Made by a program: the position numbers and the translations under genes. A DNA stretch of 64,000 nt from Phoronis australis (lineage: Eukaryota; Animalia; Phoronida), in the NCBI GenBank assembly GCA_002633005.1, contig NMRA01001015.1, forward strand, positions 424 to 64,423, read 5' to 3'. Of the stretch, positions 11,099-64,000 are shown in pieces. The notes beneath the pieces were generated by a model, which saw only the letters and a list, made by a program, of their open reading frames with translations, was not told the origin of the DNA and did no database searches. Position 1 is the stretch's first letter, and each line of letters begins with the position of its first letter.

Positions 11099-11841
11099 AC
11101 GGAAAGTGGCAACGTTTTGAAATAATTTCTTGTAAATTTTAGCAAAACAATACTGATTTTATTGCAAATGAGTTATTAAAAATAAGAAATGTGCAAAATT
11201 CCAGACCACTGAATGCAGTATTTGAGGATACGCTATCCATCGTACCGGAATTTCGTACTTTCGACATGAAGTAGATTATGAAAGAAGTCATGCGAATTGA
11301 TTTTGTATCACTATCGAAGTACATGTAAGCATTAGAGTCGGAGTTTCTTGGATAAATCGAAGGTTTTCTCGTGCAACAGGATTTGCGAAAAAACTTGAGT
11401 AACGACTATCCTAAGTCAGTTGTTTGTCCGATTTTATTTGCAATGCGAGTTGAACAGTTTTAACTTATCGATCATTTTTATAAACTTTTTTTTTGTATTT
11501 TGGTTTTTGCCTTCATAGCAAAACTGAAATTCCCCCGCTGTTGTTGGATGGTCCCACTTTTTTAATTTTTTTCCGCCACACCATTTTTAAAATGTCCCGC
11601 TTTTTGACACACGGCCAAATTTACATATTATCATGTACTGATATATTTTCCCACGTGACACATCCATATGTTCCGGCTTCACTACAAAATAAAAACGAAA
11701 CGTTTCATGGGTTTTTGCTACCGGTAATTTCCCATTCAACTATAAAAAAATAACAAAAACTGCTTGTGGGGCACCTTTGGGTGTTACATCTCCCGTTCGA
11801 CAGAAAACACTGCCGGTACGTCTTTGTGTGTTGCCGCAAAC

Positions 11842-14800
11842 ATTTCACCTTAAGTTTTGGCTTATACACATTTTCCGCTTTTTGTCCTGAAGTCAATACA
11901 GCGCTTCCGTTTTCTCGTTATTGAATGTTGACCGTGACAACTATGCAACAGGTGTTCAAAATGATATTATCTTTTTTAGGAATATTGTTATTTTCCAGAG
12001 TCTACAATCGTAAAAATGTATTCCAATGTCTCTTGTTTGCGGTAACTTACATTACATGTATCAGGTTCACTAACTTTACTTTCTGAAGAAAAGAGTTCAT
12101 ATGTAAACTTTTATGTAAAGTCCAACACTACTACCAATATGATGAGCTATCTACAGCACATTTCAAAGCTGCGTAACAGATGTTTGTCCATTTTTATCCA
12201 TATGAAAACCTTTATCAGCAAATTACAGATAGATAGGTGTAGTAGTTTATCGCATTTTTCGTAAAAGTCAAGAGCTGCATTCTGAATTTCTACTCAAGAA
12301 TGTATTTGTATCAAAGGGCACCAATGGCCCAATTAATTATAATATATACAGATGTATAATTTTGGATGAATATCTGACTAAATTATCCACGGCAAGTGTG
12401 ATGGGTCCATATTCTAAAACCTTGGGACTTTATAGGGTAGAAATCTTTTTGAATCATTGAAACTATTTCCCCAATGGCATAAGTAGTCATTTATATATTT
12501 AATTTCTCTAGTTCATTTCCATTTTATGTTACTATTACACGCTGTTATTTTTTGCATTTTGATTACATAATTGTTTCTTAAACCAGTCAGGTATACGGAA
12601 TGATAATAACTTATGAATTAAATTATTCACCTTGTGCTTCTAGTATAACCAACTAAAGAACTGACAATGTGTTTTCTAATGAGATGGCTCTTATGCAATT
12701 CGTTTGAAAAACGAAGGAGTTGGGAAAAGTTTTAATGACAGTAATTCCACAGCAAATGAACAAACAACTCTTACGCATGCGTGGCGCAACCTCAGCGACC
12801 GCGAAATAGGAGTTGGCATTCCAGGCGCGCGTTCTGTAACGCTTAGAGGACCTAGCTAAAATCTATACGAAGTCACGTGCTACCATTCAAATTACACGAC
12901 AATATCTCACGTAATCCCGCGAAGTCTTGGTTTTTAGCAAGGTCCTAGTGTTACTAAACGCCGGGGAGGCAGGGCTAGAATTCTATAGTCGCACCTACCG
13001 TATTAGCGTAATCAGGCGCAGTGTGCCTAATTGCGGGACCTCGCTTAGGCGCATGCCGGTCTATATGCGGAACAGTGTTGAATAGAACTTGCGTTGATCA
13101 CGGTGCTCCGGATATAGGGTCACCTTCAATGTTTAAAAAATTCCTAGTTTGCACGTGGACACAAGCAGAAAGCGAGTCATAAATGGTAGATTTGGATTGG
13201 ACGTGAGAGCCAGTGCCAGGGTAGTAAACAGACTCAGGTTGAACAATCACGACTAGATAGCAGTTAAAATGCTGTAGCAGTTGAGTATATGTGGAGTTGG
13301 GCCAAGTGTAGGCTAATATTACGTAAGTCGTTCCCGAAAATAAAGGTTGTAATGAGTTTCTTATTGTAAAGTTTTAGAATTTACAAAAGCGACGAATTTT
13401 ATATTGTTTTGCATGCGCGCACCCAGGGCCGGGGAGTCGGGGGGCTCGAACGAGACCCCCATTTGGCGAAGTGGGCAAAAAGGTCCGCCTCTGAGAGACA
13501 AAAAGTCCGGGAAAATGGGACAAAAGTCTACTAAACAAGCGTAAACGTGCACTCCACAGTGGCGCTCCCGTTTTNATTTCACCTTAAGTTTTGGCTTATA
13601 CACATTTTCCGCTTTTTGTCCTGAAGTCAATACAGCGCTTCCGTTTTCTCGTTATTGAATGTTGACCGTGACAACTATGCAACAGGTGTTCAAAATAATA
13701 ATGTCTTTTTTAGGAATATTGTTATTTTCCAGAGTCTACAATCGTAAAAATGTATTCCAATGTCTCTTGTTAGCGGTAACTTACATTACATGTATCAGGT
13801 TCACTAACTTTACTTTCTGAAGAAAAGAGTTCATATGTAAACTTTTATGTCAAGTCCAACACTACTACCAATATGATGAGCTATCTACAGTACATTTCAG
13901 AGCTGCGTAACAGATGTTTGTCCATTTTTATCCATATGAAAACCTTTATCAGCAAATTTCAGATAGATAGATGTTGTAGTTTATCGCATTTTTCGTAAAT
14001 GTCAAGAGCTGCATTCTGAATTTCTACTCAAGAATGTATTTGTATCAAAGGGCACCAATGGCCCAATTAATTATAATATATACAGATGTATAATTTTGGA
14101 TGAATGTCTGACTAAATTATCCACGGCAAGTGTGATGGGTCCATATTCTAAAACCTTGGGACTTTATAGGGTAGAAATCTTTTTGAATCATTGAAACTAT
14201 TTCCCCAATGGGTTAAGTAGTCATTTATATATTTAATTTCTCTAGTTCATTTCCTTTTTACGTTACTATTACACGCTGTTATTTTTCGCATTTTGATAAC
14301 ATAATTGTTTCTTAAACCAGTCAGGTATACGGAATGATAATAATTTATGAATTAAATTATTCACCTTGTGCTTCTAGTATAACCAACTAAAGAACTGGCA
14401 ATGTGTTTTCTAATGAGATGGCTCTCATGCAATTCGTTTGAAAAACGAAGGAGTTGGGGAAAAGTTTTAATGACAGTAAATTCCACAGCAAATGAACAAA
14501 CAACTCTTACGCATGCGTGGCGCAACCTCAGCGACCGCGAAATCGGAGTTGGCATTCCAGGCGCGCGTTCAGTAACGCTTACAGGACCTAACTAAAATCT
14601 ATACGAAGTCACGTGTTACCATTCAAAATACACGGCTCAATATTTCACGTAATCCCGCGAAGTCTTGGTTTTTAGCAAGATCCTAGTATTAATAAACGCC
14701 GGGGAGGCAGGGCTAGAATTCTATAGTCGCACCTATCGTATAGCGTAATTATCACGACTCGATAGCACTTTAAATGCTGTAACAGTTGAGTATATGTGGA

Positions 14801-15075
14801 GCTGGGCCAAGTGTAGGCTAATATTACGCAAGTCGTTCCCGAAAATAAATGTTGTAATGAGTTTCTTATTGTAAAGTTTTAGAATTTACAAAAGCAACGA
14901 ATTTTATTGTTTTGCATGCGCGCACCCCAAGGCCGGGGTGGCTCGGGGGGTTCGAACGAAACCCCCATTTGGCGAAGTGGGCAAAAAGGTCCGCCTCTGA
15001 GAGACAAAAAGTCCGGGAAAATGGGACAAAAGTCTACTAAACAAGCGTACCGCACTCCATAGTGGCGCTCCCGTT
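11842..15075. repeat. Direct duplication 11842-13574 / 13576-15075 joined at a single n (probable uncollapsed haplotypes)
   Basis: Near-identical non-coding sequence on both sides of n at 13575. Differs by scattered SNPs and an indel of about 240 bp. Confidence 0.8.
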
Positions 15076-34142: not shown

Positions 34143-34303
34143 CAGTGGCAGATTTAAGCGGGGCCAAGGGGGCCATGGTCCCCCTAAAACTCTCCAGATT
34201 CCATTTGGCACTGAGTTCGGGGGTTCGAACGTCTGACGGGCAAAATCCTGGCTAATACTCTGCCCTGCCTCCCCCACCTAACTCAAAATACTGTATCCGC
34301 CCG
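34143..34303. mobile_element. MITE (CAGTGGC(G/A)GAT family), 5-bp TSD TTTGG
   Basis: Similar to 45644-45801; TTTGG on both flanks. Confidence 0.75.
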
Positions 34304-39767: not shown

Positions 39768-42700
39768 TCAGGTTTTGGCGACCTTCACCGAAATCGTTCC
39801 GTCGACGACAACTTCATGTGGAAGTTCCCGCATTCTGAAAACTTTCAAAGGTTTCGTCTTTATTGTAGTAACTTGAGGTGTCGTAGCTTGTGCTGTAATG
39901 TCCCCCCTATCCCCAATGAAGTACTCTTTTCCTAACGTGTCATACACAATGCTCCAATCTTGAAAGCTACCTTGGTCGTCAACATCCATGTTTTCCATGC
40001 CGGAGCTTTCCCTTTCTAAAACATGGAGACTTTGCTCCAGATGTTTGTCAAGCGACGCGGGTTGATAGAGGTCTTCATCATCTATGTATTCTAAATTGAC
40101 AACTGGTTTGGGTGAACGATTCCACATCCCACTGTCATGAAAACTCATGGGCTCCAACGGCAACTCCTGTGTTAAATCTTTGATACAATCGGCTCTATCT
40201 ACAGAAATTTTAGAATTTGTAGAGCTCCTAGAAGTAATAGCGGAGCCACTAAAATAACCTTTACTCGACATAGTTGATTCTTTACTCGGTCCCCTGTCAA
40301 TCTCTGTCGTCTTACAACACACATGCCCAACGTGGGAATCAACGACGCCGTGCTCGTCAGCAAATCGTCTACGAGTGACATTTTCTCTGTAACCACTGGC
40401 GGTAGGCTCACGTGATACATCCTTCCTAAGCCAATCAACACATTCTTTCACCGAGCCGACACGTAGTTGCCGACACTCAAGGATCTCGCCTATGCTATAC
40501 TCTTGACGGAGAGTAGCATAAACATCTCTAACTAAATTAAGTTCACAATGAGCTATTAACAGACCTACCGCCACATCCAAAATTACCTCTTTATTTACCG
40601 CGGGCCTTTCAAGCTTAAGGACACCGTCCCTTTCCGTGTAACCCATGAGATTAAATACCGAAACTGGGTCTTTAAGGACAGATTTTATGTAGATATTATA
40701 GTACCCACCATAAGTCTGAAAGAAAATTGAAACTATTCAAAACTGTTACCAATAAGGAAAGTGTGAAGCCGGCATTCTTACCAATGCCTTTTTACGTACT
40801 AGCGAGGACATCAATAATTTGCAACGACAGGAGACTAAACTTTGTTGGTGACCAGATTGCAATACAGGCAATGACAAAGGCGTTAGCAATTTGTGACTAC
40901 GCAAGGGTCGCTGGTGATCGTGTCCGCGAGGGAGCACATAATGCTATGTCTAATTAAAATGTGAATATGCAAATGAAGTAAAAGTTTACAAACAACCCCG
41001 GGTCTTCCGGTGTGCCGAAAACCATCCGAGAATAAGTTACCATTACAATCTCGCGAAAGTCTCCTTTTGCAAGATTAATTTTTTGCAAATGAGTATGGTA
41101 ATATTTCATCGTTACCTTAATGAAACAAGGCACAGATTTTACTATTTGTTTATTTCACTATCAAATATGGTACTACTTGGAATTATGTTTTTTATAAGTT
41201 AACACTTGTTTTTAAGTGTATCAGTTGCGGTGTTTTTTTAAACCCCAAGTTATTTACAAAATCTTTCTTTTCCTGATTATACTCGTACACGTAGTTCTCC
41301 AGCAAGTCACTAGGTAGCGCTTGATACAAATTTAAATATTCACAGTTTTAATGAGACACAGCATCTTTAACCACAACGATTTCTTCCTTCCTGACGGCTA
41401 GAACTGCTATATCAAAACCACATGGGGGGACGCGCAAAAGAACTGCCAAAATTATTTAAGTGCATGAAATCACCAACNTGTAACCCATGAGATTAAATAC
41501 CGAAACTGGGTCTTTAAGGACAGATTTTATGTAGATATTATAGTACCCACCATAAGTCTGAAAGAAAATTGAAACTATTCAAAACTGTTACCAATAAGGA
41601 AAGTGTGAAGCCGGCATTCTTACCAATGCCTTTTTACGTACTAGCGAGGACATCAATAATTTGCAACGACAGGAGACTAAACTTTGTTGGTGACCAGATT
41701 GCAATACAGGCAATGACAAAGGCGTTAGCAATTTGTGACTACGCAAGGGTCGCTGGTGATCGTGTCCGCGAGGGAGCACATAATGCTATGTCTAATTAAA
41801 TTGTGAATATGCAAATGAAGTAAAAGTTTACAAACAACCCCGGGTCTTCCGGTGTGCCGAAAACCATCCGAGAATAAGTTACCATTACAATCTCGCGAAA
41901 GTCTCCTTTTGCAAGATTAATTTTTTGCAAATGAGTATGGTAATATTTCATCGTTACCTTAATGAAACAAGGCACAGATTTTACTATTTGTTTATTTCAC
42001 TATCAAATATGGTACTACTTGGAATTATGTTTTTTATAAGTTAACACTTGTTTTTAAGTGTATCAGTTGCGGTGTTTTTTTAAACCCCAAGTTATTTACA
42101 AAATCTTTCTTTTCCTGATTATACTCGTACACGTAGTTCTCCAGCAAGTCACTAGGTAGCGCTTGATACAAATTTAAATATTCACAGTTTTAATGAGACA
42201 CAGCATCTTTAACCACAACGATTTCTTCCTTCCTGACGGCTAGAACTGCTATATCAAAACCACATGGGGGGACGCGCAAAAGAACTGCCAAAATTATTTA
42301 AGTGCATGAAATCACCAACTCCACACAAAAAACATAAGACAATCAGACAGTCAAACCTCCACAAACAGTGTTTGATAATAAGTGACTTGGTTCATCTCGT
42401 GTTACGAGCATTTATTGGTCGATACACACGTACCAAGAAGAATCGGGAAACGATCACAGCATTAGTCATCCATGGGCGCACACGGGGGGGGGGGCGGGGA
42501 GTCCACCAAAAAATCGGCGGAGAATGCACAATTCACAGCTTTGAGTGTACCTCGATTTTTTTTAGCAAAAGGTCCACATTCTCAAAAATTCGAGCCCCTC
42601 ATTGTTTAGGCTGGGTGCATATTTTCGATAGTGTTTAGTGTCAAAAGTCGTCGTCGATATTGCAGCGCGTTTTCCGTGATTCGAAGTATAATAAAGAATA

Positions 42701-44219
42701 GCGTTGCGTTTCAGGTGGTTGTGACAACTTGGTATTTGACCACACTGTGTCTTTGGCATTTTTTCTCGGGACGTCAGTGAACCGCGGATAGGGCACAGGT
42801 TTGTACAAGAAACTCGTGTGTTGGTGGACATGGCACACTGGCGAGGGGTACGTTCATACTTCACACTCTTGTCTGTGGAGTTAAGAAACATTCCATTTAA
42901 GGTCACTTTTTTCTATTGTCTCTGTTTTGGGATATTAAATTCACGGTTGTGATATGGCAGTGCTCTAAAGGAAGGCTTAATGTAGTTATTTGTCAAAACA
43001 AGGTAAATGGTAGTTTAACACACTTTCATGCAGTTCTTTTTTCACCGAGAACTGAAATGCTTCTTTTACAAACAGCAATTTTAGTCTTGTGAGCGCAGCA
43101 CGACTTTTCTCATAAACAATCAGCATTGCTCACGGTACTGTATACTCTCGATTAACAATGCGACACAGTTAAGATTAGAAAATCTATGACTAACTGCAAA
43201 AGTGATATACCATAATCCCATGATTACACCAGATGTCAAAGTCACTTGGAGCCTGTTTCTAGAAGAGACTATTGGTTTTTAACTTTAACTTAAAGTCAGA
43301 ACTCTGACTACAAATTTCCAAAAATTCTAGTTGATCTTTTGTGTTTTGCGTTCCTCGAAACTTTTCAGTAAATTGTCTTCTGTCAAGTCGAGCAGACAAT
43401 GGATTTTTGTTTTGTTTTTTTTTTTTTGTCTCCGAGTTGCAGACAGATTTTTTGACTATCTACCTTAGCCTGCTCTTGTGAAACAGGATTAACCATCTGT
43501 AGGCTTATTTTTAGCCGAAAGTCATAAGACTCTTTGAGAAACATGCCCCAGGTGGCGACAGCTGTCTCGCCCATTAGTCGGCTCAACTAGAACTACCAAA
43601 AAGCATATGTTAAGTTAGTAGAAGAAGGTATCAAAAGCCGAAATTGTCGCTTTGTGTTACTTTTAACGACCGACATTACCTTAAGACACCGCATCTGGTC
43701 ACACGTGATGGAGATAATCTGAGAGGATTTTCGTAAGATAATACTCTAGTGATGGCTTGCGAGGTAAATGTATGATGGCATAATTACTAAATGTGAGAGC
43801 ACTCAAAATAAAAACCATACAGTAGTTACAGGCCATAGGCCTATCTGCACTAATCATGTCTTGAAGAATAGTAATGTACCAAAACGTTGACAGCCTGGTT
43901 GACGACTTAAAATACTCACTTTAATGGTTTTGAACTCCGTCTTCCAAGGCCAAATAAGCAAATTCATAGCATAAGAAAAGAGCACCGCAAAAGCCGTAGA
44001 AAACTGCTTCAAGGACTCCCTGTCCTTATGTTGTTTAATTCGGACGAATTCTCGGCGAATCTCCTCAAATTTCCATTTGTCCTTGTCCTTACACGAAGAC
44101 AAGTATTGGGTAACTTTAGATCGGATTTTTTGCGGGACCTCTTCCGATGGGCCACTGTGATCGTAATTTCCAACTATAAGTTCATAGAGTTCCGCTCCAT
44201 AGCGGCTATTACCGCCCAT
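39768..44219 (-). CDS. SPATA2/Tamozhennic-like PUB-domain protein, about 415 aa (exons 44219-43920, 40715-39768)
   Basis: The phase-0 GT-AG join gives AFAVLFSYAMNLLIWPWKTEFKTIK|TYGGYYNIYIKSVL...NLMGYTE...VAVGLLIAHCEL, the SPATA2-family PUB signature. Acceptor at 44234-44235. The C-terminal end is uncertain because further exons are possible. Confidence 0.82.
40637..42319. repeat. Direct duplication with 842-bp offset across a single n at 41478 (assembly overlap)
   Basis: 40637-41477 is essentially identical to 41479-42319; identical ORFs are offset by 842. Confidence 0.9.
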
Positions 44220-45643
44220 AACAATGCTAACATCTGAAAATACAGGACGCTGTTATAAACAACAATTCATACATTAATGATGTATTTTGCCCTGTTTGAC
44301 TCGTTAAAAACGGAAATTGATTCAGGCCTTGCACTCTCATCGCCATAGGATTCCATTTCAATAAACAAGAACATGGCGACATCATCAGCGACTCAACAAA
44401 AAGCCTCAGAGTTAACTGGGGCTGACCAAACCCTTAAATTGCTAATTCGCCGGCGCAACTTCATTTTCTGACAATGTCCTGAGCGGCTATCGGAAACAGA
44501 ATCCTGCTACGGTAGAGTATTTCGAAACCCGAATTGTGACAAAATAGGCCCAATCCCGCGATTTTCATTAGCTAGCTAAGGGCGAACGGAAGTATATTGT
44601 ATCGGGGTTTTGATGTACGCTCTATTCCTGGTTATCTCTTCCTAGTTCTATCGATTTTTTACAAACAAACGCATTAAACTTTTACTCAATTTAAACGATA
44701 CAATAAAAGTGTCCGAGCACACCCGCCAATGAACGTACACAGAACATCTTTCGCCTGATATCCACCGTACATAGTCCGAAAAGGTCGAGTGAGACCAAAG
44801 GTAGTAAGGGCTCATGATCTTGCAACATTTGACTTCTTCAGAGTTACTTCAGTTAAGTTACCAAGGAAAGCTTCTGACGTTTGTTTGTTTTGTTTTTTTT
44901 TTATTTTGTAAAACTACGTTAAGCAGGCCTTTGGCAATTCACCGTATAATTTCTGACTTTAATCGAGATCAATGTATGTTGGTTCAGACCAAAATGACCG
45001 ACGCGAATTAACTAACTGACATATGTTACGGGCAACAACCGTCTATGCAAAAGCAAATGGGTCTTATTTATGGAGCCTAAAAAATAGAAATAGTCCTTAT
45101 TTCCCTGAGCGACATCCCCACTCGCCATCCCCGGTACTGTTGGCAATTTTTTTAGCCTGAGTCAGTCTCCCGGGCCACTAATTTCCCTGTTTTTGACCAC
45201 GAGTAACAGAACAGCTGGCGGCATAGTATTCGGCAGGTAGTTCAGTTTACACTGCCCGGCGGTACTTTTTTAGATTTGAAAACTAAGCTTAGGTATCGCA
45301 GACCACGACTGTCTTCAACTATTAAATGCCATTGCGTGAACTCAGTTTGCTGTACTTGAGCAGAAGGTACAGTGATCCCGAGGCGACATTACGAGGTAGT
45401 CACAGGTTCAAGTGACTTTTACGCGAGTAGTCCACCAGAGTCACGTGCCGGGCATTAGGCCTATATATTTTGTCTTTTGTAGATCCCTACGCCGGCGAAG
45501 CCGCACTGTCATCCCGCCGACGCAGTAGGCTAGATCTATAAATGCAGGCCTAAATGAAAGTATATATAAAATATATGATCAAATCAGTCATCAGTGCCTA
45601 AACTTCACTAAGTCCATGAATATATCCAGTCATGATCAGTATT

Positions 45644-45801
45644 CAGTGGCGGATTTAGAGGGGGTCAAGGGGGCCATCCCCCCTAAAATTCTCCCAGATT
45701 CCATGAGGCAGTTGGGGGCTGCGAATGTCTGACGGGCAAAATCCTGGCTAATACTCTGCTGTGGCCCCCTTAACCGTCTCAAAATCCTGGATCCGCCCCT
45801 G
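45644..45801. mobile_element. MITE (TIR CAGTGGCGGAT), 5-bp TSD GTATT
   Basis: CAGTGGCGGAT...ATCCGCCCCTG with GTATT on both sides. Confidence 0.88.
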
Positions 45802-46030: not shown

Positions 46031-47073
46031 TGTCGTGAACGTGTATTCTCTCGTTGTGTGGCGTCATGTGGTGTTGTCTTTGTTCGTCTCTGTGTGTGTG
46101 GTGTTGACATAGTGAGCCAGTGATAGGTCACGTGACTCTGGGCACGAGGGGGAATCGGGGAGTCTATGAAAGGGTGTGGACCTAGATAGACGATCTGGAG
46201 AGTGTAACTAGAAGCGCTCTTACAAGTGTGACACTGATGGCAAGCCCGGACAAGAAGTTGGGTAAGTTGGCTGTCTCTGAGGAATTATAGGCCGCGTTAC
46301 TATAATTGGCGTAGTCGCCGGCAGGATTCAAGAGTGCCAACTTATAAACCGTGTGTGAGTTTTTCGCGCCGGTACCCTTCCGGGAGTGGGAGGGTAATTT
46401 GTATACCAAGTGCGTTTTCGCGTGTAGCTAGCCTATATATTACTGTCGTTACTGGTTATTTGTTGTAATCTTGTTGTGAGTAAATACTGCATGTCCATTT
46501 GATTCCGTGCGCGGTTCTCAGTTCCTATTTGATATTGGTCCTAGGAAATATTAAACTTGCGGGTTTGATATTAGTTGATAATTATGGCTGCCGGGAAGGT
46601 GTCTATTAATTTCTGTCCCGCGGGAGAGTTGTTAGAAATTCCAGGGGTTTCCGAGGAAATTGCTAAAGATATTTTGAAGTTCCGGTCATCCACTCAAGTA
46701 TTACCGGAAAATGTTAATTATATTAATTCAGGGTGGAAAGTCACTAAGGCGGTCCGTAATACTATTGATTTCAGCGCGAGTCCAGAGGACGAATTTCACA
46801 AAATTATCGAGGTATGTGAGGAATTCGAGAAACATGCTTTTAAGCCTGCAAAAACAAAGAGTGCAGGTCATACTCCCTCTTCGGCAAAGATGGCCGCAAA
46901 ATTCCCGGGAAGCACAAATGCAAGTTTGGAGTGTAAACATGATATCAGATCACATGCTCCCAGTAAGCTAGTTTTTTCGGGAAAAAGGGGAACATGGGAG
47001 GACTTTCAATGGAAGTTCCAGAGTTTGGCACGTGATTATTTTTGGCCGACACATAAGTGTCGCACTGAGTTGG
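46031..47073 (+). mobile_element. Partial second Gypsy copy: LTR (46031-46304), PBS with 3-bp insertion, intact gag 5' end (ATG 46584); truncated at n 47074
   Basis: Homologous to 47748-48787 but with a different 5' flank (AAACAT vs GCGGAT) and LTR polymorphisms. Confidence 0.85.
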
Positions 47074-47747
47074 NCTCAGATTTTGCATGCACCCCGTCCT
47101 ACATCAGGGCTTGGAATGACCAATGACAAAAAACACGGAAACCTTTACGGGCCCAAAACATGCGCGCTACCTAGCCTTGAAATGGTCAATGTGAACTTTA
47201 CGACTAAAAAAAAGGAAAAAAAAAAGTTACCAGCAGCAGTAGCATGAGTCTGTGTCGTTTTAGCTCGTCCGTCCACTTCCAACCCACACATTTTTGGCTG
47301 CAAAGCCGTAGTGTTTGTCACCGCGGTTTACAATCACACGAGCACCATTGAAAATCCCACCACGCTATCCCAGATGCCCCGGCAATGTTGACAATTTACG
47401 TTCCTCCGAAACATAAAGAGCAACTGCTGCATTTCGAGGTGAACGTCGTCTGCAATGGCGCTGTAAGAAAGGAATTTGCCGCGGAAATTTTATATCAAAT
47501 CCGATTTTTTTATACGGAAATATAATAAAATGCGCGGACAGAACATTTTTAAAAAGCGGAAATCCGCGTTTCCGCGGAAAATTCCTAGCCTTGCTACATG
47601 TTGATACAGGTTTCACGGTGAGTTGATGAGCAGAACTACCCTGGCTGTGTGCAATTTCGGGGTATACGGAAGAAAAACACACAGTGATACCTAGCTGTAC
47701 TTTACTTTGACGATAGTCTTCATACAGCTAGCTGAACAGTGGCGGAT

Positions 47748-48023
47748 TGTCGTGAACGTGTATTCTCTCGTTGTGTGGCGTCATGTGGTGTTGTCTTTGT
47801 TTGTCTCTGTGTGTGTGGTGTTGACATAGTGAGCCAGTGATAGGTCACGTGACTCTGGGCACGAGGGGAAAAATCGGGGAGTCTATGAGAGGGTGTGGTG
47901 AAAGATAGACGCTCTGGATAGTGTAACTAGAGGCGCTCTCAAAAGTGTGACACTGATGGCAAGTCCGGACAAGAAGTTAGGTAAGTTGGCTGTATCTGAT
48001 GAATTATAGACAGCGTTACTATA
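47748..48023 (+). repeat. 5' LTR (TGTCGTGAAC...CGTTACTATA)
   Basis: 276 bp, about 8 mismatches to the 3' LTR by eye; followed by the PBS. Confidence 0.95.
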
Positions 48024-48025
48024 AT

Positions 48026-48045
48026 TGGCGTAGTCGGCAGGATTC
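48026..48045 (+). promoter_or_regulatory. Primer binding site, tRNA-Ser
   Basis: TGGCGTAGTCGGCAGGATTC is complementary to the 3' end of eukaryotic tRNA-Ser(AGA/TGA) (GAATCCTGCCGACTACGCCA), 2 nt after the LTR. Confidence 0.92.
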
Positions 48046-48299
48046 AAGAGCACCAACTTATAAACCGTGTGTGAGTTTTTCGCGCCGGTACCCTCCCGGG
48101 AGTGGGAGGGTAATTTGTATACCAAGTGCGTTTTCTCGTGTAGCCAGCCTATATATTACTGTCGTTACTGGTTATTTGTTGTAATCTTGTAGTGAGTAAA
48201 TACTGCATGTCCATTTGATTCCGTGCGCGGTTCTCAGTTCCTATTTGATATTGGTCCTAGGAAATATTAAACTTGCGGGTTTGATATTAGTTGACAATT

Positions 48300-49713
48300 A
48301 TGGCTGCCGGAAAAGTGTCTATTAATTTGTCCCGCGGGAGAGTTGTTAGAAATTCCAGGGGTTTCCGAGGAAATTGCTAAAGATATTTTGAAGTTCCGGT
48401 CATCCACTCAAGTATTACCGGAAAATGTTAATTATATTAATTCAGGGTGGAAAGTCACTAAGGCGGTCCGTAATACTATTGATTTCAGCGCGAGTCCAGA
48501 GGACGAATTTCACAAAATTATCGAGGTATGTGAGGAATTCGAGAAACATGCTTTTAAGCCTGCAAAAACAAAGAGTGCAGGTCATACTCCCTCTTCGGCA
48601 AAGATGGCCGCAAAATTCCCGGGAAGCACAAATGCAAGTTTGGAGTGTAAACATGATATCAGATCACATGCTCCCAGTAAGCTAGTTTTTTCGGGAAAAA
48701 GGGGAACATGGGAGGACTTTCAATGGAAGTTCCAGAGTTTGGCACGTGATTACTTTTGGCCGACACATAAGTGTCGCACTGAGTTGGGGTTGTGCCTTGA
48801 GGGGGATGCAGCTCGGTGGTTTTCTAATTATATAAAAGAATATCCGGGGGCAGAGTTTGATGACATCATCGAGATAATGTCTAATAGATTTGGATCCGAG
48901 GTGGAGAGTATTGAGGTACATCAGCTTCGTTTCCATTCAGCATTTCAAGAGAGGGATGAGTCTCTTGAACAGTGGGCAGATCGCCTTACTAGTTTGTTCC
49001 TCAAGGCTTTTCCGGACCCCAGGCCTTCGGATAAATCACAGTCAGTACTGAGGTTTTGTCTGGGAATGCGCGATAAAGATGTGGCCCAATTCACAATTAA
49101 TAATAAACCAGCGACTGTTGTTGACGCATTGACATCGACTCGTTGGTTTTCGACCACTAAAAACCTAATGCATGCATCGCCCAGGTCAGTGACATTTCGT
49201 CGCGAATCTTATGCCGACGATGTATTCGAGAATGTCGACGTGAGACAGGTTAATCGTAAGCCTAGTCTTAAATTTACCCCGCGAGATACTATTGAGTCGC
49301 GGTTGGACGCCCTTGAGGGGAAATTCGCGTCCCTTGAATCATCTAGTCTTGAAATGCAATCGGATATTGTTTCCCTGAAATCAGACAATTCTCAAATTCA
49401 CAAGAAAATAGACCGCATGAAGACTGAAATGAATAGCAATTTCGGTGACATAACAAATAACTTCAATAAACTATTTTCAATACTACAAACTCAGTCGCCG
49501 AGACGACCGCAGGAGTCGAGGGAACAGCGGTTATCGCCGAATTCTCCGAGGTCTGACATTCGTCAGCGAAATTCACCAGGTTCTTCACCTAAATGTCCAT
49601 ATACACCGAGGTGTTTTAAGTGTAATCAACTGGGGCATTATCAGAGTAATTGTCCATCGACGTCGGCACGTAGGGCTAGTGTGGAAAGCAATGAGGGTGA
49701 TTTAAATGCCTAA
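48300..49713 (+). CDS. gag: gag (N-terminal HhH motif, capsid-like region, coiled coil, CCHC zinc knuckle); 2-bp deletion near 48328
   Basis: CFKCNQLGHYQSNC knuckle; LEGDAARWF and QERDESLEQWADRL capsid motifs. The ATG at 48300 is out of frame because of a 2-bp deletion relative to the 46584 copy. Confidence 0.9.
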
Positions 49714-49762
49714 GGACTGGGCGATCGGGTCTTACCCCAGTCCGTAGTAAGTGCCAAGACCC
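49701..49762 (+). promoter_or_regulatory. -1 ribosomal frameshift signal (T TTA AAT plus pseudoknot)
   Basis: Slippery heptamer 49701-49707; stem 1 49714-49721/49736-49743; stem 2 49727-49733/49756-49762; pol is in the -1 frame. Confidence 0.8.
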
Positions 49763-52700
49763 TCCTGATGTTGCGAAATTAGTTGGCCTCGTGGGGTGCA
49801 TCAAGAAATTTGTTAAAAAGCTTAGTCGGGACTCCAATTCATCGGAAACGGATTGTTCCTTTGAGAGAAAAACTTCTGCCGATTATCATAAATCTGTTTC
49901 AGAGTTAAGTAGTCCTACAAATTCTAACGTAACGGAGAGTGTATCTTCAGACAAGATGTGTGGGGAAACGGTTCCGGTTATTGTTGAGGAGGTGACGAAC
50001 AGTTATGAGATTGTGATAGATTCATTACACATGAATTCACAAAGTAACTCTCCATCTGTGTCGGGAGAGCTGGTTCCATCCGGCTCTGTTCCGGTCAAGA
50101 TGTCAGTCGAGGCTGATAGTTTCTTCGATTCCCTAGAGACTGTTGGAGTAAAGAAGACTGCAACGGGTAATATGTATTATATACCGATTAGAATTAATGG
50201 CACTGTGGTTGATGCCATTATTGATTGCGGAGCTGACAGCACCATAATCTCGCACCGGTTGTACAATTTGTTAGACAACGTTGCTTTTTCACATAACATT
50301 AATGTACAAACGGCTGGAGAAGATATGGCTATGCTAGGTTTTCGAACGCAACCAGTAACTCTCACGTTTCAGCATCAGACCTGTGATGTTTCATTAGTCG
50401 TGGCTAATATTAACGATGAGTGTTTATTAGGTCTGGATGTTATGAAACGGCTAAATGCAGTTATTAATATGAAAAAAGATTGCATCACGTTGGATAACAA
50501 AACTTCAGAAATGAAGTATGGTTTCCCTGCGAAGCTATTACCTACTGTAGTACTGGCTAGGTCTGTTAGTATACCTCCAAATACTGTGAAACGGGTTAAG
50601 TGTGTAAAAAACCCAAAATTTCAGTCAACAGTTTTGGTTGAGGCCGATTTGATGAATCTGGATCCGCGATTATCAGTACCTCGCGCTTTGTATGATTTTG
50701 AGGATGAGCCAGCTTTGATGATTTTCAACACTTCGGAGCATCAAGTTAGGCTGGTGGCTGGGTCATCACTGGGTTCAGTACAAAATGTGGATGAATGGAC
50801 TGAGGTTCATTTGAATTCCGTTACTCCCTTGGATGAAGATGATGTTTCGGCTTGAAAAGTTGTTGATCAGTCAGATGTCAATAAGTATCAGATTAGCTTA
50901 CCATCCAAACTTCAGGGCCTTTTTGACAAATCTAAAGTTTCACTTTCGGATGACGAGTCGTCAAAATTACATACATCGATTACTTTCTGATTATACCGAT
51001 GTATTTGCAGCCGATGATATGGATTTGGGCAATTTTACAGCCGTAGAGCATGTAATTGATACGGGAGATGCTCAACCAATAAAAATGGCTATGCGGCGTA
51101 CTCCGAGTTGTTTCATTTCGGAGGAGGAGGGTCATCTAGACAAAATGCTCAAGGCTGGCGTGATTACTCCGTCTACGAGTGAGTGGGCTGCGGCTCCGGT
51201 TTTAATTAGAAAGAAAACTGACGGTTCAGTCCGGTATTGCATCGACTACAGGAAGCTAAATCGGGTAACCAAAAAGGACTCCTGGCCTTTACCATTGATA
51301 GACGAGTGCATTGATTTACTTGCGGGTAATGTGTGGTTTAGCAAATTAGATGCTAATTCGGCGTACTGGCAAATCAAAATACGCGAAGAAGACCGTAAGA
51401 AAACGGCTTTCATAACTAAATATGGCCTTTTCGACTTCAAGTCAATGCCTTTTGGGCTCTGTGGGGCTCCCTCAACCTTTTCACGGGCAATGAGTTTAGT
51501 TCTGCGGGGGCTAAACTGGCACACAGTTCTTGCTTTTCTCGACGACATTTTGGTCTTGGGTTCTAGTTTTGACGTGCATTTAAACAACCTGCGGGAGGTT
51601 TTTGATCGTTTTAGGAAATATCAAATGAGATTGAAACCCAAGAAATGTTCATTGTTTCAAAAACGCGTTGATTTCCTAGGACGATGGGTGGGCCCTGAGG
51701 GGTTAGAAATGGGTCAAGATAATATTGACAAGGTAAAAACCTGGCCTGTTCCAAGAAGTAAAAAACAGTGTCAGAGTTTTCTTGGTTTCGTAAATTATCA
51801 TCGTCTTTTTATCAGGGATTTTGCTCGCATTGCGATGCCACTTTACGAAGTCACTGGGTCCTCTCCCTTTGCGTGGGTGGAGAAGCAGCAATTAGCTTTT
51901 GAAGAGCTTAAGGTGGCTTTAACATCGCCACCCGTGCTGTCGTTACCCAATAATTATGATGAATTTATCCTCGATTGTGACGCTTCTGATCTTGCGATTG
52001 GTGCTTGTTTGTCACAAGTTCAGAATGGCGAGGAAAAGGTTATCTCGTATTCGAGTTTTGCGTTGGTGGATGAGCAAAAACGGTATTGCATGACTAGGAA
52101 GGAATTATTGGCTGTGGTCCGTTTTACTCATTAATATCGACATTATTTGCTGGGTCGGAATTTCCGCGTGCGGACGGATCATAACAGCTTAACATGGTTG
52201 TTGAATTTTAAATCTTCAAGTGGTCAGATAGCGCGTTGGATTCTGCAGCTGCAACAATTTCCGGGTATGAAGATAGAGTATCGGCCGGGTATAAAGCATA
52301 TTAATGCAGATGCACTTTCCCGTATTTCTGTAGATATTTGAAGCAACTATAAACTGGGAGTTTCTCCAGAACTGCTTCCCTGCGGGGGTTGTGCAAAATG
52401 TCAAAAAGCTCATAATGACTGGTATAGTTTTTCACAAAAAGTTGATGATTCAACATCTCTTGGTAGCGTGGTGGTCACAAAAGTAGATAAATGTATTGGT
52501 ACAGGGAGACAGGTAATTACGGCTTCTGTTGGAAGTCAAGAGTCGGATTTGTCTCGGTATATACCTGATGATCTAGCAGAGCAGGAATTTGGATTGGCTG
52601 TGGTTAATCCAAATCTTTCAAATTCGAGTGATAGTGTTTTTGTGGAATCGGAATTTTGCGTTGTCAACAACAACTCGACCAGCTCAAACTCCTGCGGGTA

Positions 52701-54784
52701 TCTTAATGAAGCTGAGTTGCCAATTAAACAAAAAGCTGATGTGGATTTGACTTTTGTTTTCAACTGGTTAAAGGAACAGNATAGTGTTTTTGTGGAATCG
52801 GAATTTTGCGTTGTCAACAACAACTCGACCAGCTCAAACTCCTGCGGGTATCTTAATGAAGCTGAGTTGCCAACTAAACAAAAAAAAGCTGATGTGGATT
52901 TGACTTCTGTTTTCAACTAGTTAAAGGAACAGGTAGTTCCTACAGAGCACGAATTGTTCCTATCTAGTCCGTCAGCAAAGTTTTACTGGATAAACAAAGA
53001 TCGGTTTTATATTCAAGGTGATGTATTGTTCTGAAAATCATACCATCGGCGGCTCATCAGGGTATTTTCCGGACTAAGTCAAAAATAAGGTTAAAATATT
53101 TCTGGTATGGTTTGACGAAAGATGTCAAACAATTCATAGGTTCCTGTGGGGCCTGCAATCAGAACAAGCAGGGCAGTAGACGTGGTCGATTTCCGATGAT
53201 TCGTTATCATGCTGGTGCGCCGATGGGACGGGTTCATGTATTTTCTGGGGCCATTACCTGTGACAAACCGCGGTAATGAACATGTTTTAATGATCGTTGA
53301 TCAGTTCACCAAATGGGTCGAGTGCATTCCATTACCTTCCCAAACGGCTGAGGTCACGGCCCATGCGGCGGTCAACGAGTTCTTCACACGGTTCGGATAT
53401 CCGTTTCATATTTTTTCAGATCAGGGAAGGAATTTCGATAGCAAACTTTTTAAGTCACTGTGCGACCTCCTACACATAAATAAGTCAAGAACAACTCCAT
53501 ACGAATGGACAGGTAGAGCGATTTAATCGCACGCTCATGGACACGGTGAGATCTCACGTGAGGGATTATCAAGACGACTGGGATATGTTTATTCCGCAAA
53601 TTGCTGGGGCGATTCGCTCATCAGTCAACCGACATACTGGNGCCTGCAATCAGAACAAGCAGGGCAGTAGACGTGGTCGATTTCCGATGATTCGTTATCA
53701 TGCTGGTGCGCCGATGGAACGGGTTCATGTGGATTTTCTGGGGCTATTACCTGTGACAAACCGCGGTAATGAACATGTTTTAATGATCGTTGATCAGTTC
53801 ACCAAATGGGTCGAGTGCATTCCGTTACCTTCCCAAACGGCCGAGGTCACGGCCCATGCGGCGGTCAACGAGTTCTTCACACGGTTCGGATATCCGTTTC
53901 ATATTTTTTCAGATCAGGGAAGGAATTTCGACAGCAAACTTTTTAAGTCACTGTGCGACCTCCTGCACATAAATAAGTCAAGAACAACTCCATACCGTCC
54001 GTCTGCGAATGGACAGGTAGAGCGATTTAATCACACGCTCATGGACGCGGTGAGATGTTACGTGAGTGATTATCAGGACGACTGGGATATGTTTATTCCG
54101 CAAATTGCTGGGGCGATTCGCTCATCAGTCAACCGACATACTGGTTTCTCTCCAAATATGGTGATGTTGGGACGAGAAACAAATCAGCCGATAGATCTTA
54201 TATTTCCGGTGGTCACGTCAGTTAATAATCAACCATATGGTGATTATGTTGGGAGACTTCAAGGGGCAATAAGCAAGGCTCATGAAACGGCGCGTCAATT
54301 TCTTCAAACTAGTCAATCTTTGATGAAACGGGACTATGATCTTTCAGTGTTTAAGCGCGTGTTTCATCTGGGTGATCTTGTGTATATCTTTGACTCGGCA
54401 ACCGTGAAAGGAAAATGTAAAAAATTATCTCCTCCGTGGAAGGGGCCGGGCATTATTACGGAAGTCTTAACTCCAGCGTTGTACCGGGTAAGAGTTAAGA
54501 ATTCAGTTTCGGTAGTTCATCATGACAGAATAAAATTATGTACAACGCAATATACAGAATTGCCTGATTGGTTAAAAAGAGTCATTTCTGCTGGAAATGT
54601 CATCAACACCAATACCGGGAATAGGGATCCGGAACTTTTTTGCATTTGTCGCAAGCCCGATCACGGAGGGCTCATGATTCAGTGCGACTCTTGTGATGAC
54701 TGGCTTCATGGGGAATGTGTTGATATTACCGCTACTGATGCAAGGGAAATTGACACTTATTGGTGTCCTCGGTGTAAGCCATAA
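49701..54784 (+). pseudogene. pol: pol: aspartic protease, RT, RNase H, integrase with C-terminal PHD finger; disrupted
   Basis: IIDCGADSTII (PR); YCIDYRKLN, MPFGL and FLDDIL (RT); LDCDASD and RKELLAVV (RH); VHVDFLG, SDQGRNF and NGQVERFN (IN); WKGPG; PHD. Lesions: stops at 50853 and 52132, a 4-bp duplication near 50970, frameshifts or deletion near 52335 and 53040, and n-join duplications at 52780 and 53641. Confidence 0.95.
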
Positions 54785-54828
54785 CATCATTATGATGTAA
54801 TAATTACATAACCATGTTTTTGTTGTAG

Positions 54829-56664
54829 ATGTCCAGTTCGCCTGTTTAGATGTTCGTTTGCGAACGAACCCAGACCTTCCAATAGCGACCTTCAACGAAG
54901 GTGAGTCCGGGGCTGTTGAGGTAGTCCCTATGGATGCAGAGTCAGTAGTGGGTAAGTCAACTGAATGCCAAGGTGAAGTGGATTGTACAGTTGCGGCTGT
55001 AGACGAAACACAGTCATCGATTAAAACGCCAGTTAGACCTGCGGGAATCTCGGGGTCATCTAGTCAGTGTTCGGTAAGTTCTGCGGGTCTTCCATCTCCC
55101 TCCTTTTCGTGCCCGTTATGTCCTTTTACGGGGTCGGAGGCCGTGTTTCGGGCACACGCCCTATTACATCTTCCGAAAATATTCAATATATCATCTATTC
55201 ACATGCTCGCGTTTCCGGGGTTACAGCGTCGTCGCGCTTGGGCGATTCTTCGCCTGTTTTCTTACATAGAGGGCAGGGAATTGGTGTCATACAGCGATTT
55301 GATGGATATGGGGGGGTTGATCGTGCGCAGTTTGCCATGTATACCATCTGTGTTGTTGGTTGACGAGGTGTCGATGTTCTTAATATGCCGTGTGATGGGA
55401 TGGCCGATACCATCTCGTTTTATCGCACCGGATGGTCGCTTAGAGAATCCAGCATGTGTGTTCCTCTTGTATATTATTTTGGGGATGATGGCACGCGTGT
55501 CGGAGGCCCTTCGCTCTGAGTGGATCCGTTGGTGTGATGAAGAGTCCGCATCTACCGAAATGCAGGAAGTAACATTTATTCCTTTAGCGGCGCCACTGCA
55601 TCAGACATCTACTGGGGTAGACGTTGCGTCGACTCCTACGAACGGACCGGTGAATGCACCATAAGCAACGGGGCCTGTGACTACATCGTTCACCACTTTT
55701 GCTCAGGTAGTTGCAGAGGGTTCGTCTAGGCCTACTGCGATTGGAACGACTGTTGCGGCCGAGTCTATTTCAACTCTGCGCAAAGTAAAAGCGGATCCTC
55801 AGGCTTTGGACTCGCATTTCCACATTGATAGGTTATCTGTGGCCCATCGTGAGAAAACGGGCGTACGGACAGTGGACAGATGGCTGTCAGTACCAGAACT
55901 CCTGGCGGCAGATATGTGCAGGCAACCGACGGTGCCAGTGACCCTCTGTGGGGGGATCATGGTTTTTTGCGATGCACATGACTTTCGCGTTGACCTGGGT
56001 GCCTATTTGAAACAGCTTCCTACGGGATGGAAGGCAGTCGTAGGCATCCATCCTAAACAGCTCTCCAAATTGGATTTCCGTGCGTGGGAAGTTATGTTGG
56101 GGTTGCTGTCAGAACCAAAGGTAGCAGGGCTTGGGGAAGTCGGATTGGAACAAGGTAGGGACGAGGTATGGCAGGCGCGTGCTTTAGAAGATTTGATAAT
56201 TCATTTTTGTCGGCTGGAAAAGAAAAAAACTGAATATCGTAGGAAGGTGCTAGTGATTCACCTGCGAGGGGCCAAGCATGATGTTCATTATGATTGGGGT
56301 TTTGCTACACTCCGTGAGATTTTGCGGCGTCATGCTCCGCGGAGTATTCGTATGCACTTATACACCTTTGTTGGAAATACAAATGTCGTGCGCGACTTCT
56401 GTGAGGAATTTCCTTCGTGTTATTTTGGCTTTTCAGGTTTGGTATGCAGGTACAACCGCTGGCAGGTTGCAGCGTTACGCGCGGTTCCTCTGCAGCGGTT
56501 GTTGTTGGAAACCGATTCCCCTCACCTTCCGGTAAATACTAAACCTAATTACCCTCAGTTTATAGGGGAGGTCGCGGAAGTTGTGGCAAAGCTAAGGGGG
56601 GGTGTCCACTAAGGTGGTTCTGGACGAGAGCGTTCGTAACGGACGAAGGTTATACCGATTATAG
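54829..56664 (+). pseudogene. Retrotransposon ORF3: C2H2 zinc finger plus TatD-family nuclease (about 620 aa reconstructed; in-frame stop at 55662, +1 G at about 56590)
   Basis: ORFs 54858-55664 and 55677-56612 share a frame. TatD motifs DSHFH, VGIHPK, GLGEVGLE, VIHLR, YFGFSG, LLLETDSP. Removing one G from the poly-G restores the typical end LRGVSTKVVLDESVRNGRRLYRL*. Zinc finger CPLCPFTGSEAVFRAHALLH. Confidence 0.9.
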
Positions 56665-57185
56665 AGGGGCGTGGGGGTGGTATATGAGATATTATAGAAA
56701 TAATAGTTTTTTTCCCTTTTCTATATATTTTTTTTGTATATGCCTCTTTATTTTACATTTAGGGGCATTTCCGTCTCGTCTGTTCGGACATCTTGTGGAT
56801 TATATTAGTTGTTTCTTTTTTGTTTTTTGTTTTTTTTTATGTATTAAGTTCTTACTTGAGAGTAAGGGGATGGGTTTTTGGTGTTTTTTTTTGGTTTTTC
56901 CTTTTCGTTGAGTGCCCTTTTCTTTTTAGAGTCAATAGGTTTTGTTTTTAGTCATTGTTCTTCAGGCCACTATGTTTAGGATAATTTTCTTTTGGGAGGG
57001 ACGGTTTAGTTGTGAAGTGCTACTAACGTCACATCAAATGTTTTTTTTTTTTCATTAAGTTATTTTATTTTTTCTTTCTTTCTGCGAAACTAATTGATGT
57101 TTCTTTTTGTTACATTTGGTACGACTGTTGGTCTTCTAACATTTGTTTGGGGATATTAGGAATTAAAGTTAGGCATGTTCTTTTT

Positions 57186-57198
57186 AGGAAGGGGGGAG
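57186..57198 (+). promoter_or_regulatory. Polypurine tract
   Basis: AGGAAGGGGGGAG immediately before the 3' LTR. Confidence 0.9.
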
Positions 57199-57474
57199 TG
57201 TCGTGAACGAGTATTCTCTCGTTGTGTGGCGTCATGTGGTGTTGTCTTTGTTCGTCTCTGTGTGTGTGGTGTTGACATAGTGAGCCAGTGATAGGTCACG
57301 TGACTCTGGGCACGAGGGGAAAAATCGGGGAGTCTATGAGAAGGTGTGGTGAAAGATAGACGCTCTGGAGAGTGAAACTAGAGGCGCTCTCAAAAGTGTG
57401 ACACTGATGGCAAGTCCGGACAAGAAGTTAGGTAAGTTGGCTGTATCTGATGAATTATAGGCCACGTTACTATA
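57199..57474 (+). repeat. 3' LTR
   Basis: 276-bp match to 47748-48023, followed by the TSD GGAT. Confidence 0.95.
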
Positions 57475-57641
57475 GGATTTAGGCATGGGGGCCATGCCCC
57501 CTCCACTAAAATTCTCCCAGATTCCATTTGGCAGTTAGGTAGTGCGAATGTCAGACAGGCAAAATCCTGGCTAATAAAAACTCTGCCCTGGCACCCCAAA
57601 CTCAAAATCCTGGATCAACCCCTGAAGAACACAACAATTAT

Positions 57642-63366: not shown

Positions 63367-64000
63367 GACTTCCGGTAAAATGGCGCCAGCACAAAACGTG
63401 CGTTTTGCTAGTCTGTAAATTTTCAAAGTTATCTTCACCTTGCTGCTTGAAACGGGACGTACAAAAAGAGCCACATCATCTCCTGCACCAAAAGACGGCG
63501 AGGAAGTGCCAGAGAATGAACCAGAGTGGTTTTCATCATTAAAGAGTGAGTTGAAAAGGTCTAATATGGAGATTATGAACGAGCTCGGTCACATAAAAGA
63601 ATCGTTAAACTTAGCCTTTAACACTGCGGAAGAAGCCTTAGCAAATTCCAAACAGTGTGCAGAGAAAATTGCTTTGTTGGACAAAGAAAACGGGTATTTG
63701 AAATCCAAAATCATATCTCTCGAAATGCATTCTAGAAGGAACAATCTCGTGTTTGTGGGGATCCCGCAAACCCAGGATATGTCGTGTGAGAACAGTTTAT
63801 CTATAGTGCTAAAGCGATATATGGGCCTTGACAACATCTCTTTTGAAAGAGTGCACCCTATTGGCGATAAAGGTACTATAATTGCTAAGTTTTCGTTCTA
63901 TAAACAACGACAACAAGTGTGGATGGGAAAGAGAAAGTTTCAAGGTTCGAAAATTTTTGTGAACGAGGACTTCCCTCATGAGACTATTGTCAATCGAAAG
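63367..64000 (+). mobile_element. 5' end of an L1-like LINE: internal promoter and ORF1 (63452->64000, runs off window)
   Basis: Begins GACTTCCGGTAAAATGGCG. The open frame encodes a coiled coil, then LEMHSRRNNLVFVGIP, FERVHPIG, IIAKFSFYKQRQQVW and IFVNEDFP, typical of L1/Tx1-type ORF1p. The apparent start is ACG at 63452. Confidence 0.85.

Follow-up and report, generated by a model that had tools for sequence, protein, structure and literature searches.

A Gypsy retrotransposon family splices an LTR exon with a likely start codon to a third gene for a predicted TatD nuclease

Our preferred explanation, which we consider probable, is that a family of Gypsy retrotransposons splices a donor in its 5' LTR (exon end at 47980) to an acceptor just after pol (exon start at 54829), and that the AUG in the LTR exon likely starts the message for a third open reading frame, a C2H2-TatD protein (ORF3). 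(Positions refer to the window, the whole 64,000-nt stretch of DNA that we analyzed, and the features are on its forward strand.) The LTR-to-ORF3 splice itself is real: it is present in sequencing data from two independent studies.

At 47748-57474, the window carries a complete Gypsy LTR element whose third ORF is of the C2H2-TatD kind. The structural marks of Gypsy/Ty3 elements are present: two LTRs, a primer-binding site, a polypurine tract, and a target duplication (4 bp, at 47744-47747 and 57475-57478). The 276-bp 5' LTR (47748..48023) has 8/276 substitutions relative to the 3' LTR (57199..57474), and the ends are TG...TA, not TG...CA. The LTR lacks the canonical AATAAA. It contains a palindrome (47844..47853) that we take to be E-box-like and a likely promoter element; the motif is also in 4 of 8 related LTRs. 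The primer-binding site (48026..48043), as read from the sequence, is presumably of the tRNA-Ser type. The coding order is gag and then PR-RT-RH-IN. Gag (48295..49713) has an N-terminal HhH-like motif and a CCHC knuckle, and the window copy has the gag start out of frame. Pol (49701..54784), with protease, RT, RNase H, and an integrase with a C-terminal PHD finger, is broken up by frameshifts, stops, and two local duplications flanked by Ns. A second, partial copy (LTR, leader, and the start of gag; 46031..47073) ends at an N. In an integrase tree (unrooted, with 20 members of the clade), the window element is a long, unplaced branch. A scan of viral contigs with the integrase gave six candidates, and none was confirmed.

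ORF3 (54829..56612) comprises a disordered linker, a C2H2-like motif, a helical domain, and a TatD domain. It matches the TatD family in Pfam (PF01026) with an E-value of 3e-26 and 92.7 bits (the cut-off is 27), and it matches the family profile with 301 bits over 55092-56600, or about 500 codons in a single frame. The structure model of a relative (P0008) matches TatD structures (E = 6e-13). Of 29 relatives, 28-29 keep the metal-ligand columns; the decayed window copy, which also has an in-frame stop at 55662-55664, departs from them at one position. The predicted product joins a metal-dependent TatD nuclease to a module with a zinc finger and helices. Its job might be to trim or clear the element's RNA-DNA or single-stranded intermediates, but this is just our best guess and we hold it tentatively. 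ORF3 is not an envelope glycoprotein, which sets the element apart from errantiviruses. As for the rest of the protein, a word search found no longer homolog of the N-terminal half, and the only leads from a structural search with the middle domain were Atlas matches below 0.8. A search of viral structures gave one TatD-like match. Scanning viral contigs with the N-terminal half of the TatD alignment gave 58 candidates, none confirmed, and the whole TatD alignment gave 10 loci with 27-40% identity, which we excluded from every count. (Proteins of this TatD-Gypsy clade are filed in databases as host or bacterial genes; even the bacterial genome records of symbionts carry such animal elements, as "TatD family hydrolase.")

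The LTR exon and its splice sites had been proposed in an initial annotation, with coordinates, sequence, and phase that proved to be correct. The coding part of the exon (47956..47980) is an ATG, eight codons, and one base (phase 1), directly followed by a GTAAGT donor (47981..47986) that is 46 nt 5' of the primer-binding site. Each of the window's three LTRs has one instance of this 25-nt exon (three in all, 0.00 expected); the copy in the 3' LTR (57407-57431) is identical. The acceptor (54810..54828) is pyrimidine-rich, ends in TAG, and lies 44 nt past the pol stop. Both sides of the 47980^54829 junction are in phase 1, and 6,848 nt are removed. RNA folding near the donor is unremarkable (z = -0.62).

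We searched four public sequencing runs (X1-X4) for this junction. (X4 is RNA-seq, while for X1 we only guess that it is RNA; about 18-19% of each raw run was read, and our statements rest on the matches listed.) The exact join is in two of the four runs, as one contig in X1 and two reads in X4. These are few molecules, but they join the predicted bases. The X4 reads join 47978 to 54828 with a single variant letter between. The X1 contig is 236 nt long; its first 19 letters are 47961-47979, in the variant of the second copy's mini-exon (46237-46261), and the rest aligns without gaps to 54828-55042. That variant is also the one in most RNA reads. The junction reads derive from sister copies; the window copy is decayed. 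No 47980^54829 junction was among the matches listed for X2 and X3.

Read depth agrees with the removal of gag and pol. In X4, sense depth is 1.9-2.7 over 54697-55960 and at most 0.42 in every bin from 48061 to 53432. In X1, depth climbs towards the 3' end and gag-pol is mostly empty. In both runs, ORF3 is the best-covered coding part. Together with the junction, this supports the earlier proposal that ORF3 is expressed from an env-style subgenomic mRNA. Nine sense reads in X4 cross the donor unspliced. We saw no match, among those listed, that breaks off at 47980 as a join of the LTR exon to host exons would, which leaves unsupported the initial annotation's suggestion that solo LTRs could donate the exon to host genes.

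The layout of an LTR donor and a post-pol acceptor is clade-wide. In all seven related LTRs that are bounded by a polypurine tract and a primer-binding site, the best donor is 15-87 nt 5' of the primer-binding site (background, 182 of 3,034 windows), and in 25 of 29 related ORF3s an in-frame ATG follows an acceptor by 0-12 nt (background, 371 of 4,932 ATGs); the donor matrix came from a consensus and both thresholds were chosen after seeing the data. With near-duplicates merged, the latter count is 20 of 23. The distance from the pol stop to the acceptor is 12-277 nt in 18 of the 22 relatives measured, so the 44 nt in the window element is typical. The sites that are used in X1 and X4 are at positions that are kept across related elements, which supports the initial annotation's explanation.

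Where does translation of ORF3 begin? The relatives have an N-terminal domain of about 100 residues, predicted to fold as five helices (no PDB match at E = 0.001), that is missing from the window element's ORF3. With a profile for this domain, built from 31 of 159 homologs, the sole match in the window is at 54834-54947 (10.8 bits, E = 1e-4), beginning 5' of the first in-frame ATG of ORF3 (54930), and the helical part has no match anywhere in the window. The match includes a conserved motif, DVRLRTNPDLP, at 54834-54876 in the frame of ORF3. There is an ATG right behind the acceptor, at 54829, but it is out of frame with ORF3 and runs for only six codons. Its closed frame is not specific to the window copy: the X1 contig is gap-free over 54828-55042, and no indels are listed for X2-X4. 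The motif lies between the acceptor and the ATG at 54930, which supports the need for an upstream start. With the N-terminal domain gone and the ATG behind the acceptor out of frame, the LTR exon is the likely start of ORF3. Our view that the AUG is used and that ORF3 is translated from the spliced RNA is based on the reading frame and the conserved motif, and we consider it likely.

Two of the original arguments for this start fared less well. First, ORF3 was said to have no nearby in-frame ATG, which is wrong, as the ATG at 54930 is 101 nt past the acceptor (and there is the out-of-frame one at 54829). Second, the two differences between the mini-exon and the copy at 46237-46261 are real and synonymous, but the argument that they reflect coding constraint is weak: the exon's divergence (2/25) is no lower than that of the rest of the LTR (18/274), and in two X1 contigs from a more distant subfamily, codon 2 is changed non-synonymously.

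If, as in most relatives, the LTR exon is instead a leader that does not code, then the splice would be real but the RNA would start 3' of the AUG, or ribosomes would scan past it, and ORF3 would start at 54930. We think that this is unlikely. The X1 junction contig does begin at 47961, just 3' of the AUG, and so does not include it; the AUG has a C at -3; an open ATG is missing from three of the seven LTR exons in relatives; and an in-frame ATG is available. (Among the four related LTR exons with an open ATG, three are in frame with ORF3, which is not beyond chance.) However, sense depth in X4 stays at 11 between 47940 and 47964, which is compatible with reads that span the AUG. Also, the ATG and its spacing are retained in the more distant X1 subfamily, and if translation began at 54930, the conserved motif would be left untranslated. 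Two other ATGs further 5' in the LTR (47783 and 47885) are both closed.

Somewhat less probable still is that ORF3 is a decaying remnant whose join is in frame by chance (a one-in-three event), with the AUG having at most a role in tuning gag translation, by opening an upstream ORF. On unspliced RNA, the same AUG opens a 17-codon ORF (47956..48009) that has the same length in all three LTR copies, and all four differences between copies within it are at third positions, including two past the donor. Also, most X2 and X3 reads at 54829-54900 exit ORF3, and the window's ORF3 has the stop and the altered metal-ligand position. However, gag and pol of the window copy are equally decayed, so the decay is specific to this copy; ORF3 still fits the family profile for 500 codons without leaving its frame; and no other coding part is as well covered in X1 and X4. 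(We checked by hand three candidate acceptors for splicing the LTR AUG in frame to gag, and none fits.) Finally, it is very improbable that the joined sequences are genomic copies that already lack the 6.85-kb part, whether by deletion or by retrotransposition of spliced RNA: X1 may be DNA, but its depth is biased towards the 3' end, X4 comes from RNA-seq, the join is exactly on GT..AG, and spliced RNA without a primer-binding site would be a poor template.

In our preferred explanation, with the LTR AUG as the start of ORF3, transcription would begin in the LTR, 5' of 47956. The spliced RNA, without the primer-binding site, gag, or pol, would be purely an mRNA, and in the unspliced RNA the AUG would be read as the upstream ORF ahead of gag. 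Ancestrally, the LTR exon may have been a non-coding leader, with ORF3 having its own ATG right behind the acceptor; the loss of about 100 N-terminal codons would have put the ATG at 54829 out of frame, and the in-frame AUG in the LTR would have taken over. We give this history about even odds. The direction of the N-terminal loss is unrooted, as no close relative among 52 loci shares the truncated ORF3 and the element's branch is long and unplaced.

A second donor adds alternative products. The 72 nt at 54829..54900 form a symmetric phase-1 exon with the out-of-frame ATG, the motif, and, at its end, a donor (54900/54901). A second acceptor at 57181..57198, ending at 57187, is directly 5' of the polypurine tract, and two X3 reads go from 54901 through the polypurine tract into the LTR. 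In X2 and X3, the main use of 54829-54900 is in another RNA, which leaves at 54900 into foreign sequence (40 and 23 reads) that is not in the 64-kb window; molecule ends in these runs pile up at 54831 (10/18 and 5/10). The second donor is not conserved: at 0 of 10 motif matches in relatives is there a donor of at least 7.8 bits within 150 nt. A broader idea, which we rate below even odds, is that in a Gypsy lineage part of the LTR has become the exon in which the coding sequence of the element's nuclease begins, rescuing a frame-breaking N-terminal deletion. Splicing would then decide which of three products one AUG yields: without splicing, the upstream ORF ahead of gag; with one splice, the TatD protein; and with two, a short peptide that contains only the motif. 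Each solo LTR of the family would be a promoter-AUG-donor cassette.

A prediction from sequence alone has thus become a mapped splice junction, and it indicates how a widespread clade of TatD-bearing Gypsy elements likely expresses the third gene. If the LTR encodes the first residues of a protein of the element itself, its sequence would be under an unusual double constraint, and the path from leader exon to coding exon would be traceable. Gene callers that consider single ORFs would overlook the probable start of such an ORF3.

Our literature searches found no description of this TatD-bearing Gypsy clade or of this LTR-start splicing mechanism, which we regard as a form of env-type subgenomic splicing. 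In the env of avian sarcoma-leukosis viruses and in the spliced HBZ of HTLV-1, a start and a few N-terminal codons are also spliced onto a distant ORF. However, the env AUG is that of gag, outside the LTR, and HBZ is antisense from the 3' LTR, whereas here the AUG is in a sense exon of the LTR. ORF3 resembles TatD nucleases (PF01026; YcfH and TatD of E. coli, human TATDN1-3) in sequence and predicted fold, but it is fused to element-specific domains with no match in Pfam or PDB, and its nuclease activity is a prediction. Human TATDN2 degrades the RNA of R-loops (PMC10707325). In the Drosophila errantivirus Springer, Gag and Pol are made from unspliced RNA and env from a spliced subgenomic mRNA, and exons of foreign origin can also be spliced to the donor; but its donor is 43 nt 3' of the 5' LTR, its leader has no AUG, and its ORF3 is Env (PMC13097621). 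Bdelloid Juno and Vesta also have enzymes at the env position (a DEDDy exonuclease and a GDSL esterase), typically from spliced messages, but TatD is another fold, which that paper does not name, and its passages on these ORF3s report no mapped junction (PMC5408684). The major splice donor of foamy viruses is in the LTR and so in both LTRs, which raises the same questions of how the 5' and 3' copies differ and of U1-dependent control of polyadenylation; these are retroviruses, and the abstract of that study mentions no start codon in the donor exon (PMC3694450). The ERVL/MaLR LTRs of mammals (MT, ORR1, and MT2) are "plug-and-play" first exons for host genes, with a donor whose place close to the LTR's 3' end is conserved and sometimes a functional AUG (PMC5538554). 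The window element has a donor in such a place and an AUG without being an ERVL; the internal regions of MT and ORR1 are described there as non-coding, whereas the AUG exon of this invertebrate Gypsy would serve the element's own third gene. Under the broader idea above, solo LTRs of this family would be the counterpart, in an invertebrate, of the MT LTRs in mouse oocytes.

A complete Gypsy-type LTR retrotransposon occupies 47748-57474 of the window. It has a 4-bp target duplication, a primer-binding site (PBS), a polypurine tract (PPT), and two 276-bp LTRs that differ at 8 positions, and it encodes gag, protease, RT, RNase H, and an integrase with a terminal PHD finger. The third gene, ORF3 (54829-56612), follows pol. 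It falls into two stop-to-stop pieces (54804-55664 and 55665-56612), which the family profile spans in one frame (301 bits); the second is TatD (PF01026, 3e-26). Decay affects all three genes of this copy, and part of a second copy is present at 46031-47073.

The initial annotation held that ORF3 is expressed, in the manner of env, by splicing from a start-codon mini-exon in the LTR, with gag-pol removed as an intron. The window sequence bears out the 25-nt exon (47956-47980), its donor (between 47980 and 47981), the acceptor before 54829, and the phase, and the mini-exon is found once in each of the three LTRs. ORF3 was also said to lack a nearby in-frame ATG, but there is one at 54930. (The ATG at 54829 is out of frame with ORF3 and opens 6 codons.) The two synonymous changes in the mini-exon do exist, but they do not demonstrate coding constraint, as the LTR overall varies just as much (18/274 sites, against 2/25 in the mini-exon). 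In a more distant subfamily from X1, codon 2 is changed and the ATG is kept. Without splicing, the mini-exon's ATG opens a 17-codon upstream ORF (47956-48009), in which all four differences among LTR copies fall at third positions, two of them past the donor; judging from this pattern, constraint may reach into the unspliced reading.

The predicted 47980^54829 splice was seen in public data. We used four runs (X1-X4) from one organism and two studies, mapped on the element twice, with about 18-19% of every raw run covered. In X4, which is RNA-seq, two reads connect 47978 with 54828 with one letter between; we take this to be the 47980^54829 junction in a copy whose last codon is the variant one. 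In X1, a set of contigs whose RNA nature is only guessed, a 236-nt contig is gapless on 54828-55042, and its first 19 letters match 47961-47979. The junction was not listed in the covered part of X2 or X3. Nearly all raw reads over the mini-exon carry the variant found at 46237-46261 (12/12 and 15/15 in X2; 10/11 and 9/9 in X4), so expression comes from sister copies. Sense depth in X4 is 1.9-2.7 across 54697-55960 versus at most 0.42 in bins 48061-53432, and X1 depth increases towards the 3' end. In X4, nine sense reads pass the donor without splicing; 3' LTRs, solo LTRs, or genomic RNA would be expected to give such reads. The X1 junction contig ends short of the LTR AUG. X4 keeps a depth of 11 across 47940-47964, in agreement with inclusion of the AUG in the RNA but without proving it. 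Overall, the LTR-exon splicing interpretation is supported, and the LTR AUG is likely the start codon of ORF3.

We then examined related elements. A search with the TatD domain among 50%-identity representatives yields 426 relatives at E <=1e-10; those with names are scallop proteins or the "TatD family hydrolase" of symbiont genome records. A clade-specific alignment retrieved 52 loci (15 + 37). Wherever these are long enough, an integrase lies upstream of the TatD ORF (mostly 54-63% identical to the window's over full-length matches), so the loci are host retrotransposon contigs. Fifteen contigs of bacterial symbiont records (L011-L025; Sedimenticola and Thiodiazotropha MAGs), with ORF3 annotated as a TatD hydrolase, are animal Gypsy elements, that is, host contamination. 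Seven related LTRs could be delimited by PPT and PBS, and in each the best-scoring donor is 15-87 nt upstream of the PBS (background 182/3034 windows; shuffles, 1-55 per 1000 each); this count omits six more gag-bearing loci whose LTR could not be bounded. An N-terminal domain is detectable at 29 loci, 25 of which have a pyrimidine-rich AG 0-12 nt upstream of an in-frame ORF3 ATG (20/23 with near-duplicates merged; background 371/4932). The thresholds for both counts were picked once the data had been seen, and the donor matrix was built from a donor consensus. As sequence signals, these point to the same layout of LTR donor and post-pol acceptor in relatives.

The window family differs at the N terminus of ORF3. 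Relatives have their own ATG, then a domain of about 100 residues, predicted to form five helices, and then an RDIRL-type motif (31/159 proteins). The window's ORF3 has the motif alone (54834-54947, upstream of the ATG at 54930), and the helical part was not found anywhere in the window. From pol stop to acceptor is 44 nt in the window, and 12-277 nt in 18 of 22 relatives measured. An ATG follows the window's acceptor, as in relatives, yet it is out of frame, and no indel around it was seen in X1-X4. The most economical explanation is a takeover by the LTR AUG from a start stranded by deletion. Among related LTR exons, 3/7 have no open ATG and 4/7 have one, which would be in frame in 3 of them; this gives such a takeover raw material. 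Because the window sits on a long, unplaced branch of the integrase tree (20 rows, unrooted), the order of events is one that we infer. Another clade member, L055 (7090-7700), also lacks the helical domain and has kept its own ATG behind the acceptor; the protein P0070 likewise starts at the motif. The LTR exon peptide contains S-P-x-K, and S-P-x-K/R or S-P-K/R motifs, which we take to be CDK-site-like, start 7 of 24 related ORF3s (L018, L021, L048, L050, L056, L057, and L059).

A second consensus donor, between 54900 and 54901, turns 54829-54900 into a symmetric exon of 72 nt. In X3, two reads continue from this donor across the polypurine tract and on into the LTR, a pattern consistent with splicing to an acceptor that ends at 57187 and with omission of the entire TatD ORF. 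Another 40 X2 and 23 X3 reads depart here into sequence absent from the window, and molecule ends cluster at 54831 (10/18 in X2, 5/10 in X3); no loose end at 54831 was listed among mapped reads. Our interpretation is that a near-identical copy at another locus lends 54829-54900 to a chimeric RNA, perhaps with an internal start. The donor is not conserved in relatives (0/10). Further consensus donors lie early in ORF3 (54951/54952 and 55073/55074), with no use among the reads listed.

Several features of the surroundings were also noted. A helix-hairpin-helix-like motif, unusual for Gag, opens it in both copies (46587-46690 and 48300-48400; PF12836, E 5e-5, below cut-off). Single Ns occur at 47074, 52780, 53641, and 57715. 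Local duplications within pol, bordered by the Ns at 52780 and 53641, resemble assembly artefacts; the partial copy, which stops at 47074, may have arisen in the same way. The insertion site is a short high-copy repeat (47737-47747, 57475-57620), with further copies at 34214-34302 and 45710-45798. The host gene next door, on the opposite strand, is a SPATA2-like PUB-domain gene (exons at 39768-44252, minus strand); both element copies are upstream of it in opposite orientation. Regions 1-15000 and 63419-64000 hold long degenerate direct duplications, spaced 6.5-6.9 kb and 1.7 kb apart, and an ORF at the window end that resembles a non-LTR ORF1.

We propose that LTR-driven transcription would yield a genomic RNA whose AUG opens the 17-codon upstream ORF ahead of gag. 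In a spliced RNA without PBS, gag, and pol, the same AUG would read into ORF3. We predict a product in which a TatD barrel is joined to a C2H2-like and helical module. The TatD family consists of nucleases, and human TATDN2 is reported to degrade the RNA of R-loops (PMC10707325). Our guess is that the product might act on hybrid or single-stranded intermediates of the element itself.

Among the papers listed in searches of open-access literature, none dealt with a TatD gene in the ORF3 position of Gypsy elements or with an LTR-supplied ORF3 start codon. Expression of ORF3 from spliced messages is standard (PMC13097621; PMC5408684). Foamy viruses have a donor inside the LTR, like the window element (PMC3694450), and the LTRs of ERVL/MaLR elements, which feed host genes, have both a donor and an AUG (PMC5538554).
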